26,333 nucleotides of DNA from Candidatus Aenigmatarchaeota archaeon. Lineage in GTDB: Archaea > Aenigmatarchaeota > Aenigmatarchaeia > CG10238-14. A program made the translations under genes and the position numbers. Under the pieces are notes generated by a model. The model saw only the letters and a program-made list of their open reading frames with translations, did no database searches and was not told where the DNA came from. Location: NCBI GenBank assembly GCA_044343545.1, contig JAWBZR010000009.1:1-26333 (forward strand). Reading direction: 5' to 3'. Below, one piece after another: positions 5,896-14,160 of this stretch (the stretch's first letter is position 1; each line of letters begins with the position of its first letter).

Positions 5896-7091
5896 TTCTC
5901 TGCAACATTTTTTAAGACAATCAAAAACACTAATGAGACAATTTCTGCAAGCACCAATGCAGCTATCATAAAATCAATAGATATATCATATAGATACCCT
6001 CCCACAAGGCTTCCTAAAAAAACTGCCGATCCATAAACTGTGTTAAATACACCATAAGCCCTACCCCTCTTTCTTATTGATGTTAAATCTGCCACGGCTG
6101 CTTTCATTATAGTTTCATGAGCACCCAACACGAAACCCCAAAAGAACATAGCCACATATATTGCTCTCAAATCTTGCAAAAACACGAGTAAAATTGATAA
6201 AATGCTAAAAACAGGCAATATCAAAGTAACAACTAAACCAGCTTTTTTATTTTTTCTTTTGACTTTTATTATGTCATACAATTTTCCTATAAATAATCCG
6301 CAAAGCGCATCGACAATCATGGCGAAGGCATATAAAAGCGGTATTTGCGCGTCAGAAACTATATTGTTCGTTTTCAGATGATAACCTACTATCGCAAAAT
6401 TGACAAACCCAAAGGTTGTAAAGAATATGAAAATCGAATAAAACCAAAACAACTTTTTATTTTCTAGAGGTTCATCCTCTCTTTCTTTTGGCTCAACAGT
6501 AACCTTAAATTTGAAAAAAGTGATTAGCAATATTGCTAAGAGAAGGAAGAAGGGTATCCAAAAAGCAGCGTATGCTTTTTGATAATCCGCTATTGTTTTT
6601 TCTGCATTTGAAGAAAGTAAGACAACAAATATCATCGGCCCTATTAATGCGCCAAGTTGATCCAAAAATTCTATTATACCAAAACCAAAACCAGTACCTA
6701 CTTTTTTGGTAGCATAAGAAACCAAAGTATCTCTGGCAGGACTTCTCAAACCTTTACCTATTCTTTCAACAATTATAAGCAAGGCAGCGATTTGCCAATG
6801 TCCTGTCAAGGCTAGTAATGGTATTGAGATCAAAAGGCTATAGCCAAGTATGGTAAAAAACCAATAAGCTCTTGTCTTATCAGAAAGATATCCAGACAAT
6901 AATCTAAGCGCATATCCGATTAATTCACCACTACCCACTATCAAGCCTACCATAGTAGCGTTTGCACCCAACAATTTCAAGTAAGGACCGTTTACGCTTC
7001 TTGCGCCTTCATAAATTATATCTCCAAGTAGGCTTATTATGCCAAAAAAAATTATTATTGTAATAGCCATTGAAGTGGTTTTTGAAGGCAT
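5889..7091 (-). CDS. MFS transporter
   Basis: About 12 hydrophobic segments; GYLSDKT, ERIGKGLRSPARD and RGRAYG motifs. Confidence 0.92.
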   Translation of the reverse strand: MPSKTTSMAITIIIFFGIISLLGDIIYEGARSVNGPYLKLLGANATMVGLIVGSGELIGYALRLLSGYLSDKTRAYWFFTILGYSLLISIPLLALTGHWQIAALLIIVERIGKGLRSPARDTLVSYATKKVGTGFGFGIIEFLDQLGALIGPMIFVVLLSSNAEKTIADYQKAYAAFWIPFFLLLAILLITFFKFKVTVEPKEREDEPLENKKLFWFYSIFIFFTTFGFVNFAIVGYHLKTNNIVSDAQIPLLYAFAMIVDALCGLFIGKLYDIIKVKRKNKKAGLVVTLILPVFSILSILLVFLQDLRAIYVAMFFWGFVLGAHETIMKAAVADLTSIRKRGRAYGVFNTVYGSAVFLGSLVGGYLYDISIDFMIAALVLAEIVSLVFLIVLKNVAENY

Positions 7092-7112
7092 AAATAAACA
7101 ATTTTTTTTGAG

Positions 7113-7409
7113 TTAATAAGTTTTGTATTTTGCAATATTGTAACTTAGATACAATCCAAAGACACAACCTAAATCCCCAATTAATGCTTCATAAGGTGAT
7201 TGTTTAAACAAAAAAATCTGAATTAAATCAAATATTACCGTGCATGCTAATGAATACAACCACGGGTTTATTTCAAAAAATTGACGTGTACCTCTTTCGC
7301 TTAAAAATCTAAAGAAATGATAATTTATTTGGGTTGATAAGAAGCCAACAATAGACTCTATCATGTTCATTTTTATCATCATATCATTGCTATATGGTTT
7401 CAAATGCAT
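7113..7409 (-). CDS. hypothetical membrane protein
   Basis: 98-aa ORF with a GAGGTGA RBS and two hydrophobic stretches. Confidence 0.55.
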   Translation of the reverse strand: MHLKPYSNDMMIKMNMIESIVGFLSTQINYHFFRFLSERGTRQFFEINPWLYSLACTVIFDLIQIFLFKQSPYEALIGDLGCVFGLYLSYNIAKYKTY

Positions 7410-7730: not shown

Positions 7731-7753
7731 AAACATCACAATAAATGAATGAT

Positions 7754-7789
7754 ACCATCACAGGTTACTGGCTTTGGCAATTCAGGCCT
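7754..7789 (-). other. 3' arm of the pre-23S processing stem with canonical BHB
   Basis: RNA AGGCCUGAAU-UGCC-AAA-GCCAGUAACCUGUGAUGGU pairs with 10944-10979. Confidence 0.93.
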
Positions 7790-7941
7790 CTCGGGCGATT
7801 AGTAGCGGTAGGCTGAACATCTCGGGCGCACCCTTGATGCTTACACCTCCGCCCTATCAACCCCATCGTCTATGGGAGCCCTCGTCACATAACCGCTTGT
7901 TGCCAAGCAGCTATGTGAATTGCCGTCTCTTATTTGGGGAT

Positions 7942-7974
<33 letters not shown>

Positions 7975-8093
7975 ATTACGGCGTAGCTACTCGGCGATGC
8001 ATGAACAACCGATACACCAGAGGCCGCGGCCGGGCGTTCCTTTCGTACTCGCCCGACCTTCCCCTCAGACGGCAAACACCACCAATAGATACC

Positions 8094-8127
<34 letters not shown>

Positions 8128-8254
8128 AACGTCCCCTTTTAACCAGTGGACACCTGTACCCTTGGCTGCTACTGCACAGCCAGGTGAGGGGGAGCCGACA
8201 GCGACGGAGCAACACGCTTCGTCGATATGGACTCTCGGAAGCTACGACCCCATT

Positions 8255-8282
8255 TTAGGGGAGAGTATCGAAGCTACTCTCT
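8255..8282 (-). other. 28-nt BHB mini-intron B2 after U2449
   Basis: A-GAGAGUA-GCUUCGA-UACUCUC-CCCU-AA; CCCU pairs with exon GGGG; removal together with B1 restores GGGGAU|AAUGGGGUC. Confidence 0.8.
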
Positions 8283-8388
8283 TTAGGGTGCTGGATCTGC
8301 GATGCTAAAAGGTTTTTTCTCAAAAGCTAAATTCCTCTGCAGTTTGGTGGGGTGGTATCAATCGGGTTAGATCTTACACAGATCCATT
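8283..8388 (-). other. 106-nt BHB/BHL intron B1 after U2449
   Basis: 10-bp terminal stem UGGAUCUGUG/CGCAGAUCCA; ends in CCCU-AA|A like B2; no ORF. Confidence 0.8.
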
Positions 8389-8397
8389 ATCCCCGAG

Positions 8398-8430
8398 TTC
8401 GCCGTATGAGAGCAACCAGCTCATCATACT
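8398..8430 (-). other. 33-nt hairpin intron A after C2440
   Basis: Interrupts AAAAGCUAC|CUCGGGGAU; GUAUGA/UCAUAC stem; AC|A and AA|C junctions fit relaxed BHB geometry. Confidence 0.85.
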
Positions 8431-9725
8431 GTAGCTTTTCTGATACCACCGGCACCCATTGAGGGCAACCGATGTATCGCTAACCCACGCTTTCGCGGCT
8501 GGATTCCTTGTTGGCCAGAATCCAGTCAGGCCAGCTTTTGCGTTTGCACTCTACTCCCGATTTCCGACCGGGATGAGCTGACCTTTGGGCACCCTTGATC
8601 TATTGTCAAGGGTGTACCGCCCCAGCCGAGCTGTCCATCAAGCGGTGTCCCGCTGTCGCGGTTAGCATTACAATTGAGAAAGGGTGGTGTTCCAACGGCC
8701 TCTCAGTTGGACCCGGAAGCCCAACCTAATAGCGAGTCCCACCTACACTCTGCATTCTCAATCGTAATGCAACGCCAGACTACAGCAAAGCTCTACGGGG
8801 TCTTCGCTTCCCATTGGTGGTCTCTGGCCTATTCACCAGAATGGCAGGTTCACTAGGTTCCGGGTTGGGACAGCGAGGAAGTCGTTAAGCCATTCAAGCG
8901 GGCCGTCAATTAAACGGCAAGGGATTACGCTACTTTACGACGGTCAGAGTTACCGCCGCCGTTTACCGGGGCTTAGCCCGATTGGACTCGGGTTTCACAC
9001 ACCGGCACTGGGCAGGCATCAGGGACCATACACAACATTTCTGTCTAGCGGTCCCCTATGTTTTTGTTAAACAGTCGCTTCCTCCTTGTCACTGCGACCT
9101 ACACTCCCTGTGAGGAGTATAGGCACCCCTTCTACCGAAGATACGGGGCGAGATTGCCGATTTCCCTAACCCGGAGTAGCCTAGCACGTCTTCGCCTTCT
9201 CAGCGAGGGCACCTGTGGCGGTTCTCGGTACGAGTGCAAGGAATCCTTTCAAGGACCATTTTCACGGCCTCAAGGAATCGATCAAACTTGGCTTAAGCCA
9301 AGCTCATCCCATTTTCACCTGGTTCTCCTCATAACGAGACTCCCCAGGCTTGGATGGTTGACTTGCGTTGACCTATCCCCAAGGGTCTGGTCCTTGACTT
9401 GCGTCGCCGCACGTATCCTTGCAGTATCCGAATATTAACGGATTTCCCTTTCCCCAAGCTATGTTAACGCTTGCGGTTAGGATCGACTAACTGCCAGCTG
9501 ATCGACATTGCTGGCAAAACCTTGCCCTTTAGACGGCTGAGGTTCTCACTCAGCTATGCTGCTACTAGTGTCAGGATTTTCATTCCCGGACGATCCACAC
9601 GATCTTACGACCGTGCTTCTGCTCATCCGGGACGCCTCCCTACCACCTCTTTCGAGGTCCAAGGTCTCGGTAGCTGGCTTAGTGCCTTCCATTTTCAGAG
9701 CCCAAACCCTCGGTGGGTGAGCTGT

Positions 9726-9809
9726 TTTGCGGTGATGAAATTCATCAATCAATGGCTTAATCTTCACGCAATTCAGGTGACCGTCGTAATTTCATCGAAC
9801 TTCATCACT
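9726..9809 (-). other. 84-nt BHB intron C after A1095 (H44, GTPase-associated centre)
   Basis: UGCG-UA|A-GUGAUGAAG...UUUCAUCAC-CGCA-AA|A; removal restores GAGUGCGUAACAGCUC. Confidence 0.92.
9745..9798 (-). ncRNA. intron-encoded box C/D guide sRNA (predicted Cm1920, Um1971)
   Basis: C UCGAUGA 9798-9792, D' CUGA 9776-9773, C' GUGAAGA 9767-9761, D UUGA 9748-9745; 12-nt and 10-nt perfect antisense to 8935-8946 and 8885-8894. Confidence 0.85.
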
Positions 9810-10943
9810 TACGCACTCTTTAAAGGATGGCTGCTTCTAAGCCCACCTCCCCACTGTCTAAGGGTTTGGACATCTTTCGTCGTTTAGCCAGCATTTTGGC
9901 ACCTTAACCTTGGTCTGGCCTGTTTTCCTCTCGGATACCGAGCTTACCCCGATATCCTCACTATAGCCATCTACGACGACAGAGGATTCGGAGTTTGACA
10001 GGATAGCTGAGCCTTTCGGCCCTTGACTATCCAATCAGTAGCTCTACCCCCCTGTCTGTCTCCGGCTATGCTGTACTGAGGTACATTTCGGGAGGAACCC
10101 GCTATTGCCGGACTCGATTGGCTTTTCACCCCTAACCCCAGGTCACCCGAGTGGTTGGTTCCCAACACCGGTAGCAGACCTCCATCTGGCTTTCGCCAGA
10201 CTTTGTCTTGCCCAGGGTTTGATCGTCCGGCTTCGGGTCTTATCCAAGTGATTTCGGGCACTATTCGTACCCCGCCCCACGCTATCGCTAGCTACGGGCT
10301 GGTCGCTTTCGCTACGCCTTTCGGCTCACCACTTGGATAAACTCCCTGACCCATTCTTCGAAACGGACGGTGCAACCCTGCTTACGCTTAGGAGCCGCAC
10401 CTGACTATACCTACTTGGCTTCGGGCTCTTTTCACCGGCCGTTAGGCCTACTTTTCAGCTTTCTCTCATGATACTTGTTCGCTATCGGACTAGAGTTATA
10501 TTTAGGGTTGGATGTCAATGACACCCATCTTCCCGATCCAAATTCAAGGACCGGTACTCTGGATACTTGGCATCACCTTTCTTGCCTTCCTCTACGTGGC
10601 TTTAACACTCTATGGCGTGGCATTTCAGCCAACTTCGAGTCGGCAAGCGAAGGCGGACCCAAGTCCAAAACTCCACATCCGCCTTAACTTTTCGCTAAGG
10701 CGTTCGGTTTGCCCTTTGCCGCTTTCACTCGCCGTTACTCACGGCATCTCGTTTGATTTCTTTTCCTGCGGGTACTAAGATGTTTCAATTCCCCGCGTGG
10801 CCCTTCCCTGCCGGGAATGCAAAGGGGATTTCCCATTCGGAGACCTTGGGTTCAAAGGCTGCGTGCGCCTACCCCAAGCTTTTCGCAGCTTACCGCGTCC
10901 TTCATCGGTACTCTAGCCAAGCCGTCCACCAAGTAGGGTGAAT

Positions 10944-10979
10944 AGGCCTGAATTATTGCCGCCAGTAACCTGTGACGGT
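10944..10979 (-). other. 5' arm of the pre-23S processing stem with canonical BHB
   Basis: RNA ACCGUCACAGGUUACUGGC-GGCA-AUA-AUUCAGGCCU gives 19 bp / 3-nt bulge / 4 bp / 3-nt bulge / 10 bp with 7754-7789. Confidence 0.93.
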
Positions 10980-11000
10980 TTCATAATCGTGCTAATACTC

Positions 11001-11067: not shown

Positions 11068-11129
11068 AGGCTCAAAAGGTGTCCTCCTCTTCATTTATAC
11101 TCAGAGAGACAGTTCGGCTATCATCGCCT
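11068..11129 (-). ncRNA. box C/D guide sRNA in the 23S leader (predicted Um2552, Am2600)
   Basis: AGGC/GCCU termini; C GCGAUGA, D' CUGA, C' AUGAAGA, D UUGA; guides antisense to 8096-8107 and 8148-8155. Confidence 0.88.
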
Positions 11130-11156
11130 TGCAATTTAATTTTTATAGACTCTAAT

Positions 11157-11164
11157 TATTTAAA
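11157..11164 (-). promoter_or_regulatory. TATA box for the sRNA/pre-23S transcript
   Basis: TTTAAATA about 27 nt upstream of the sRNA 5' stem, with a purine-rich segment further upstream. Confidence 0.6.
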
Positions 11165-14085: not shown

Positions 14086-14160
14086 TGGACCCGGAGGGAT
14101 TCGAACCCTCGACCATCTGCTTAGAAGGCAGCCGCTCTATCCAAGCTGAGCTACGGGTCC
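14086..14160 (-). tRNA. tRNA-Arg(UCU), intronless, CCA not encoded
   Basis: GGACCCG/CGGGUCC acceptor stem, anticodon loop CUUCUAA, GGUUCGAAUCC T-arm. Confidence 0.96.

Follow-up and report, generated by a model that had tools for sequence, protein, structure and literature searches.

Archaeal box C/D sRNAs carry a C box (RUGAUGA) near the 5′ end, a D box (CUGA) near the 3′ end and internal D′ and C′ boxes, with spacers of about 12 nt and an overall length of about 50–70 nt. In the geometry of the C/D k-turn, G·A, A·G and U·U pairs followed by a G–C pair lie next to the bulged stem. Um2552, in the A-loop of 23S rRNA, is a widely conserved, near-universal modification. It is made by RlmE or MRM2, by snR52 with Nop1 in yeast (with Spb1; Um2921) and by the SPOUT enzyme RlmR (PMC12123411). 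All of these serve the same conserved A-loop modification as the RNA described here, but snR52 is a eukaryotic snoRNA and RlmE and RlmR need no guide (PMC12123411), whereas the RNA described here is an archaeal guide.

Methylation of U2552 guided by C/D sRNAs has been predicted in 5 of 7 archaea (PMC4644070). Guides such as Sulfolobus acidocaldarius sR7 (PMC4644070) share with the present RNA the RNP class, the N+5 rule and the target nucleotide, but come from free-standing or ORF-overlapping genes of sRNA-rich thermophiles, whereas the present RNA is fixed in the pre-23S leader across an order. Double guides with targets less than 100 nt apart are common and have been proposed to act as chaperones that aid folding (PMC4644070). 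The closest of these is sR10 of Nanoarchaeum equitans, also a double-guide C/D sRNA from a DPANN archaeon with a reduced genome, with predicted targets at the first A-loop base and in helix 93 (H93), given as 23S U2826 (Escherichia coli U2552) and U2880 (C2606) in the supplement of PMC4644070. It differs in that its H93 site is the helix base (U2880, that is, C2606) rather than A2600, its A-loop guide occupies the D′ slot rather than the D slot, and the guide follows a different A-loop. The main text of PMC3491384 makes no mention of the genomic context of sR10. The same supplement assigns Ignicoccus hospitalis sR411 to a position next to A2600, and A2600 itself did not appear in the rows found there (PMC4644070).

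A guide encoded in the precursor of the RNA that it modifies also has a precedent in the pre-tRNA-Trp intron, with its cis-acting C/D guide (Clouet d'Orval et al. 2001, cited in PMC7994747). That guide sits in a tRNA intron and pairs with the adjacent exons, whereas the present guide belongs to an rRNA leader and is separated by about 2.9 kb from its targets further downstream. The contexts of sRNA genes reviewed in PMC7994747 comprise ORF overlaps, clusters, tRNA fusions, tRNA introns and intergenic regions, with rRNA leaders unlisted there, and our search of the open full-text literature found no C/D sRNA in an archaeal pre-rRNA leader or spacer; an earlier description may exist in subscription papers. 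C/D-guided formation of Um2552 and the pairing of an A-loop guide with a guide to the base of H93 (sR10) are thus already known. What sequence comparison adds here as apparently new points is a position in the rRNA leader that relatives share and the co-evolution of a guide with a rare A-loop. We think it very probable that this archaeal box C/D guide RNA is functional and derives from the 5′ end of the pre-23S transcript in Aenigmatarchaeota (DPANN).

A box C/D sRNA upstream of 23S rRNA

The window, the whole stretch of DNA analysed here, comprises 26,333 nt of contig JAWBZR010000009.1 in assembly GCA_044343545.1 (Candidatus Aenigmatarchaeota archaeon). This assembly, labelled G000, has 22 contigs, 651 kb and a completeness of 90%, and a search of sequencing runs finds this stretch in 6 DNA runs from 2 hot-spring metagenome studies and in no RNA run. 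The element at 11129–11068 on the minus strand, hereafter the leader sRNA, has the following parts.

11068–11129, minus strand: box C/D sRNA, stem to stem, 62 nt (from sequence, covariance model R1 and 12 family homologues)
11126–11129, minus strand: 5′ half of the terminal stem, AGGC (pairs with 11071–11068; double compensatory changes)
11118–11124, minus strand: C box AUGAUAG (UGAU unchanged in 13 of 13 family sequences)
11105–11117, minus strand: D′ spacer and guide CCGAACUGUCUCU, 13 nt (12 of 12 positions complementary to 8096–8107)
11101–11104, minus strand: D′ box CUGA (unchanged in 13 of 13 family sequences)
11088–11094, minus strand: C′ box AUGAAGA (UGA.GA(G) kept across the family; 6 nt between D′ and C′)
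11076–11087, minus strand: D spacer and guide GGAGGACACCUU, 12 nt (positions 2–9 complementary to 8148–8155)
11072–11075, minus strand: D box UUGA (UUUGAG unchanged in 13 of 13 family sequences)
11068–11071, minus strand: 3′ half of the terminal stem, GCCU (covariation of the stem)

Read 5′ to 3′, the minus strand gives AGGC-G-AUGAUAG-CCGAACUGUCUCU-CUGA-GUAUAA-AUGAAGA-GGAGGACACCUU-UUGA-GCCU. G11125 precedes the C box, and G-A-U makes up a 3-nt bulge, so that the 4-bp stem is followed by the bulge, tandem G·A pairs, a U·U pair and an A–U pair, the last formed between C-box base 6 and D-box base 1, where a G–C pair is usual. We read this geometry as a probable C/D k-turn. With C and D boxes and a stem capable of forming a k-turn, D′ and C′ boxes, spacers of 13 and 12 nt and a length of 62 nt, the element has the defining features of the class; it departs from the consensus in the C box, in the D box and in the D′ spacer of 13 instead of 12 nt. 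Its fold as a single strand has ordinary stability (z = −0.32), a value that is expected for C/D sRNAs and carries no evidential weight. A sequence-only reading of the window had placed a 62-nt element with 4-bp termini and four boxes at 11068–11129; the coordinates hold, on the minus strand, as do its boxes, stem, guide registers and both targets, and only the exact frame of the C box had to be moved (the best frame is AUGAUAG).

In an Rfam scan of the window, only LSU rRNA and one tRNA reach the gathering threshold, and the leader sRNA matches no family. A strict motif scan that demands UGAUGA or UGAUAA misses it, so candidates were counted with a loosened scan of the whole genome, which returns only 3. 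In 2 of these, the leader sRNA and a candidate within the 23S gene, each of the two guides has a match in 23S rRNA. We judge the leader sRNA to be a genuine box C/D guide RNA, a member of a known RNA class rather than a novel type of system.

Predicted target sites in domain V

Both guides are complementary to the 23S rRNA encoded downstream on the same strand.

7779–10954, minus strand: 23S rRNA gene, target and downstream cistron (Rfam RF02540, 2512 bits)
8148–8155, minus strand: A-loop (H92) target AGGUGUCC, predicted 2′-O-methyl site U2552 at 8152
8096–8107, minus strand: H93 target GAGACAGUUCGG, predicted 2′-O-methyl site A2600 at 8104

The D′ guide pairs at 12 of 12 positions: GAGACAGTTCGG occurs in the window only at 8096–8107 (minus strand) within the 23S gene and, as its complement, at 11106–11117, against a chance expectation of 0.03. 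The D guide pairs at 8 of 8 positions, and AGGTGTCC is found in the window only at 8148–8155 (minus strand) and, as its complement, at 11077–11084; its chance expectation is 0.28, so this 8-mer by itself is not significant. In Monte Carlo trials of random 12-nt guides against this 23S rRNA, a run of at least 8 through position 5 has P ~0.16–0.19 and a run of at least 11 has P ~0.001–0.002. The class has been defined by at least 9 bp of guide pairing with the target at the fifth base upstream of D or D′, and Dennis et al. relax the 9-bp rule for double guides (PMC4644070); the D′ duplex of 12 bp lies within the strict rule and the D duplex of 8 bp within the relaxed double-guide rule only.

Counting N+5 upstream of CUGA (11104–11101) leads to 8104, and upstream of UUGA (11075–11072) to 8152. 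By the Rfam structure line, 8152 is the first loop base of H92, and 8104 lies two bases 5′ of the only A that bulges from the 3′ strand of H93, which we take to be A2602. With this bulge and the helix base of H93, C2606 (PMC4644070), as numbering anchors, the targets are U2552 and A2600. The same two nucleotides, with A2600 two nt from A2602, had been named in the sequence-only reading along with both matches, and the Rfam alignment bears this out. The two sites are 48 nt apart and flank H92–H93.

The A-loop of this genome is unusual, ACAGGUGUCCACUGG as against the archaeal consensus cgGGcUGUUCgCCcg in the Rfam alignment, with non-canonical first and last stem pairs and a C at position 2555. 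In archaea, C is rare at 2554 or 2555, and such variants have been examined for their bearing on ribosome (thermo)stability (PMC9976906). The D guide fits the A-loop of this lineage and not the archaeal consensus, as the sequence-only reading had also proposed.

The 23S gene itself contains a C/D-like sRNA with a long terminal stem (9732–9808, minus strand), located in an 86-nt insertion of a 23S hairpin loop that is only 2 nt long in the Rfam model (near model position 1223). This 23S rRNA is matched by the D′ spacer over 11 nt (from position 2009) and by the D spacer over 10 nt (from position 2061). This element is probably the other sRNA mentioned in the sequence-only reading.

Conservation in the host family and beyond

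A blastn search of 60 relatives with the 216-nt leader as query, in which the sRNA occupies positions 42–103, finds matches in 12 genomes of 5 genera. Three genomes of the same genus as G000 match the whole leader; in the remaining nine, which represent four further genera of the family, the match is limited to query positions 40–109, that is, the sRNA part. In 11 of the 12 loci, 23S starts 94–111 nt downstream of the sRNA, compared with 114 nt in this genome, and the twelfth locus ends with its contig. Ten family genomes lack a match, 8 of them without an assembled 23S domain V and the other two (G004 and G018) with only a fragment at a contig end.

The alignment of 13 family sequences has a mean column identity of 85%. 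UGAU of the C box, CGAACUGUCUCU with CUGA, UGA.GAG of C′, GGACACC of the D guide and UUUGAG are invariant in all 13. The A at the sixth position of the C box pairs with the first U of the D box in 12 of the 13, and the G of the C′ box with the C of D′ in all 13. The terminal stem, in turn, occurs as AGGC/GCCU, UUGGC/GCCAA, UCGGC/GCCGA and GGAC/GUCC, with double changes at 4 of 6 aligned pairs and 95% of cells paired; its covariation score is reached by 0 of 500 shuffles, and slid controls are 16–50% paired. Loss of the boxes in relatives had been named beforehand as evidence against the assignment, and what the 13 family members show is conserved boxes on a covarying stem.

We searched the 117 genomes of the host order with covariance model R1. 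In G000, the leader sRNA scores 77 bits and is the sole match in the genome. At E ≤ 0.01, R1 has matches in 34 of the 117 genomes, and without filters it finds extra copies upstream of 23S in nine further genomes, some with weak E-values but with the guide motif present. The sRNAs of other families retain the boxes, the stem and a D guide that reads GGACACCUU or a variant of it, and differ in the D′ spacer, whose best matches to the own 23S rRNA are mostly 6–8 nt and reach 10–11 nt in two. We claim no targets for the D′ guides of either the first or the second leader sRNA of these families, the latter described below. The C and D boxes covary as a pair across families (UGAUA/UUGA, UGAUG/CUGA, UGAUC/GUGA and UGAGC/GCGA).

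Homologues also occur in another order of the class (L209, 1501–1568, minus strand; L211, 1501–1575, plus strand), so this type of leader sRNA is conserved over at least two orders. A scan of 185,579 species genomes for an exact 16-mer returns 64 loci, of which R1 accepts 12 as true homologues, all in Aenigmatarchaeota or 'uncultured archaeon' records; the remainder are chance or weak matches. The 16-mer, made up of the H93 guide and CUGA, also occurs in a Thorarchaeota record (L113, 190–270, plus strand), where the surrounding sequence loosely resembles a C/D sRNA and scores 20 bits with R1.

In several relatives, the 23S gene is interrupted near the target sites: between the two, at U2584/U2585, in G001 (about 646 nt; G001:C15, 8971–9618), G024, G053, G032 and G035, and inside the H93 target, at A2598/G2599, in G040, G042, G052, G036, G046 and G029. 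These interruptions are likely rRNA introns.

Co-evolution of the D guide with the A-loop

Both the D guide and the A-loop are known for 32 genomes of the order, which differ at guide position 7 and its partner, 23S position 2554.

Guide A with 2554 U: 22 genomes
Guide G with 2554 C: 7 genomes, in genera g14, g26, g27, g29 and g42 of families f2 and f5
Guide A with 2554 C, mismatched: 3 genomes, G012 and G016 (genus g9) and G055

Guide position 7 thus matches the A-loop variant in 29 of the 32 genomes (Fisher p = 3.6e-5, a value that ignores shared ancestry). Two of the seven G:C genomes, G052 and G060, also carry a G·U wobble at G2553. A second covarying position comes from another order: in G146, the guide GAACACC, about 230 nt upstream of 23S, faces the A-loop GGUGUUC, a compensated change at 2555. 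All 32 genomes keep the N+5 pair between guide A and U2552, and the register between box and guide is constant in 39 of 39 sRNAs. The length of the D-guide duplex ranges from 7 to 11 bp over the genomes; it is 8 in G000 and in one of the four members of genus g10, the other three of which have 7. Taken together, these comparisons indicate that the D guide co-evolves with its A-loop target, and covariation at 2554 and 2555 offers in-vivo-like evidence for the pairing without experiment. The H93 guide cannot covary with its target, because that target is universally conserved.

RNP proteins and the predicted methylation of U2552

G000 encodes the proteins of a C/D RNP: the genes for fibrillarin (282 bits) and Nop5 (218 bits) are neighbours on contig 19, and that for L7Ae (101 bits) lies on contig 1. 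The sequence-only reading had suggested looking for rlmE/ftsJ, and no RlmE-like gene was found. The sole Pfam FtsJ match in G000 (PF01728, 28 bits) is a 311-aa methyltransferase of the RsmB/F type (PF01189, 184 bits), and across the 117 genomes of the order the best score of NCBIfam rrmJ (TIGR00438) is 29 bits, confined to the SAM-binding part. As the strict rrmJ cut-off is passed by just 2 of 14 control genomes and the assembly is 90% complete, this result means that no RlmE-like gene was found and is no proof of absence. The leader sRNA apparently replaces RlmE.

An RNP of this kind could instead pair with domain V mainly as a folding chaperone, with one of the two sites, most likely the A-loop, methylated poorly or never. 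Dennis et al. propose such a role for double guides and accept pairing without methylation (PMC4644070), the two targets lie on either side of H92–H93, and the A-loop duplex is only 7–9 bp long in most genomes and is broken in G012, G016 and G055 by the A×C mismatch, two bases from the target. The unbroken conservation of the N+5 pair and of the guide register, however, matters for catalysis only, and no RlmE-like enzyme was found that could make Um2552 in its stead. We regard a chiefly chaperoning role as improbable, and methylation of both sites by a functional guide remains our preferred reading.

The presumed transcription unit and its probable processing

The sequence around the sRNA contains a promoter-like box on one side and, on the other, both strands of a processing helix that encloses 23S.

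11157–11164, minus strand: TATA-like box TTTAAATA (its start is 34 nt upstream of the base that adjoins the sRNA stem on the 5′ side)
10954–10984, minus strand: pre-23S processing helix, 5′ strand (cofold; bulge AUA at 10956–10954 and central helix GGCA at 10960–10957 of a bulge-helix-bulge, BHB)
7749–7779, minus strand: pre-23S processing helix, 3′ strand (central helix UGCC at 7779–7776, bulge AAA at 7775–7773)

The 23S gene has a promoter-like box of its own and is accompanied by neither 16S nor 5S in the window, and 16S is absent from the whole G000 assembly too; a tRNA-Arg gene lies at 14086–14160. TTTAAAT occurs at an equal distance (31–34 nt before the stem) in three other members of the genus, and other genera have AT-rich boxes 33–36 nt upstream of the sRNA. 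In N. equitans, box A lies about 26–27 nt before the transcription start (PMC3491384), a spacing that would put the start here within a few bases of 11130–11134. The box at 11164–11157 is the presumed promoter of an sRNA–23S unit, with the sRNA at the start of the leader.

At the other end of the leader, 10984–10958 pairs with 7749–7778, with compensatory changes in seven relatives. The ends of 23S form a canonical 3-4-3 bulge-helix-bulge, as read from the sequence (AUA / GGCA:UGCC / AAA), which fits excision and circularisation of pre-23S rRNA by the splicing endonuclease. The leader sRNA lies 5′ of this helix at the head of the leader, so cleavage would release it. In one metatranscriptome, RNA contigs fall only on a conserved piece of 23S, at 90–95% likeness and from other organisms, with none on the leader.

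The same facts might be explained by an ordinary sRNA gene that neighbours 23S and is transcribed separately, outside the pre-23S leader. The contexts of archaeal C/D sRNAs are often varied (PMC7994747), a U4 run lies at the D guide and D box, and in this genome the TATA-like sequence TTTATAATA stands between the sRNA and 23S. The TATA-like sequence is not conserved, however, and a terminator of T5 or longer is absent. In G003, G016 and G007, only 7–12 nt separate the sRNA from a conserved leader element, AUGCAA(C/U)U; the spacing to 23S is 94–114 nt in all 12 genomes whose locus reaches 23S (G000 and 11 others); and in other families two sRNAs fill the interval from conserved leader elements to the processing helix. 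The sRNA of G013 follows 16S and a tRNA encoded on the same strand, which argues against a separate gene and makes the sRNA a spacer element rather than a 5′ leader element in some relatives. A separate gene thus seems unlikely, and we continue to favour an origin in the pre-23S transcript.

A tRNA target for the D guide, as the real one or in addition to the A-loop, has less probability still. The candidate is U44 of tRNA-Ser(CGA), which in G000 and G002 reads GCAGGUGUCCUUU and would form 9 Watson–Crick and 2 G·U pairs with N+5 falling on position 44; the D guide pairs with this tRNA of the present genome at least as well as with the A-loop. Um44 of tRNA-Ser is a eukaryotic modification. Within the family, the match decays to UGGUGUCC in G001, CGGUGUCCC in G003 and G004 and AAGUGUCC in G005; in G052, complementarity is absent although the guide is unchanged; and changes in the guide track the A-loop rather than the tRNA. 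Such pairing would be at most an extra target at the level of the genus. The tRNA-Ser(CGA) gene lies on contig 18 of G000 (7040–7126, minus strand; L188/L189) and has the 9-mer CAGGUGUCC in common with the A-loop.

Chance resemblance in an AT-rich spacer would account for an 8-nt match taken by itself, but has a negligible probability given a 12-nt match with P ~0.001–0.002, conservation over at least two orders and covariation of stem, k-turn and guide–target pairing.

A second leader sRNA in other families

The H93 guide is also found outside the host family, in a different place. Among 17 loci examined in other families, 15 contain CGAACUGUCU at 100–250 nt downstream from the first sRNA, where it forms part of a second sRNA of the leader with the layout GGUU - GAUGAUU - spacer - CUGA - loop - GAUGAAGA - gCGAACUGUCUnn - NNGA - AACC. 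There the H93 guide occupies the D slot (GUCU-NN|NNGA), whereas in the host family it occupies the D′ slot (GUCUCU|CUGA) and its motif is found once per locus. The box begins two bases past GUCU in 15 of 15 second sRNAs, as it does in the host family, and this shared register means that both architectures point at A2600. The D′ spacer of the second sRNA varies, with a 23S match of at most 9 nt (in one). From this distribution, we infer that two single-use leader sRNAs were consolidated into one double guide in the host family. The direction may have been the opposite, with the double-guide form the older, since in G158, from another order, a single RNA seems to combine the H93 guide with the A-loop guide (box pair UGACG/UGGA).

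The second sRNA of the other families is complete and adjoins the 23S processing helix (L084, 1615–1734, and 14 further loci). At the corresponding position of the window (11014–10977, minus strand) lies an apparent shortened remnant, GGGUUGAGCG...AUGAAACC, with a GGUU/AACC stem, a D-box-like AUGA and no guide, whose 3′ end continues into the processing helix.

A model for guide action at the pre-23S rRNA

From the sequence, we infer the following course for transcription start, processing, RNP assembly and addition of the methyl groups. The guide would be transcribed first, just 5′ of the leader–trailer helix, and hence made 1:1 with its substrate. L7Ae would bind the C/D k-turn and the C′/D′ motif, with Nop5 and fibrillarin assembling next. 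Pairing of the D guide with the lineage-specific A-loop would then bring fibrillarin onto the ribose of U2552, and pairing of the D′ guide with the 3′ strand of H93 would bring it to A2600. As a double guide, the RNA probably also holds the H92–H93 region of the peptidyl-transferase centre in an open, ordered state while assembly proceeds, a chaperone function alongside methylation. Cutting at the bulge-helix-bulge may free the guide, or leave it to be trimmed to the core protected by the RNP.

A bolder form of this model, which we hold only tentatively and think rather doubtful, is that the guide acts in cis while tethered to pre-23S rRNA, an arrangement conserved across Aenigmatarchaeota, with the two single-use leader sRNAs merged in the host family. 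The leader–trailer helix would hold the RNP within a few hundred nucleotides of domain V, and the raised local concentration would let an A-loop duplex of 7–9 bp work before cleavage at the bulge-helix-bulge releases the guide. If this is true, methylation and folding of the peptidyl-transferase centre would be coupled 1:1 to the synthesis and processing of rRNA.

The leader sRNA offers a natural system for the minimal guide length of C/D RNPs and for their action in cis as against in trans, and the covariance model lets annotators find such unannotated RNAs in Aenigmatarchaeota assemblies. For the organisms themselves, it suggests how very small DPANN genomes without an RlmE-like enzyme can make Um2552, with the guide hard-wired into the rRNA precursor.
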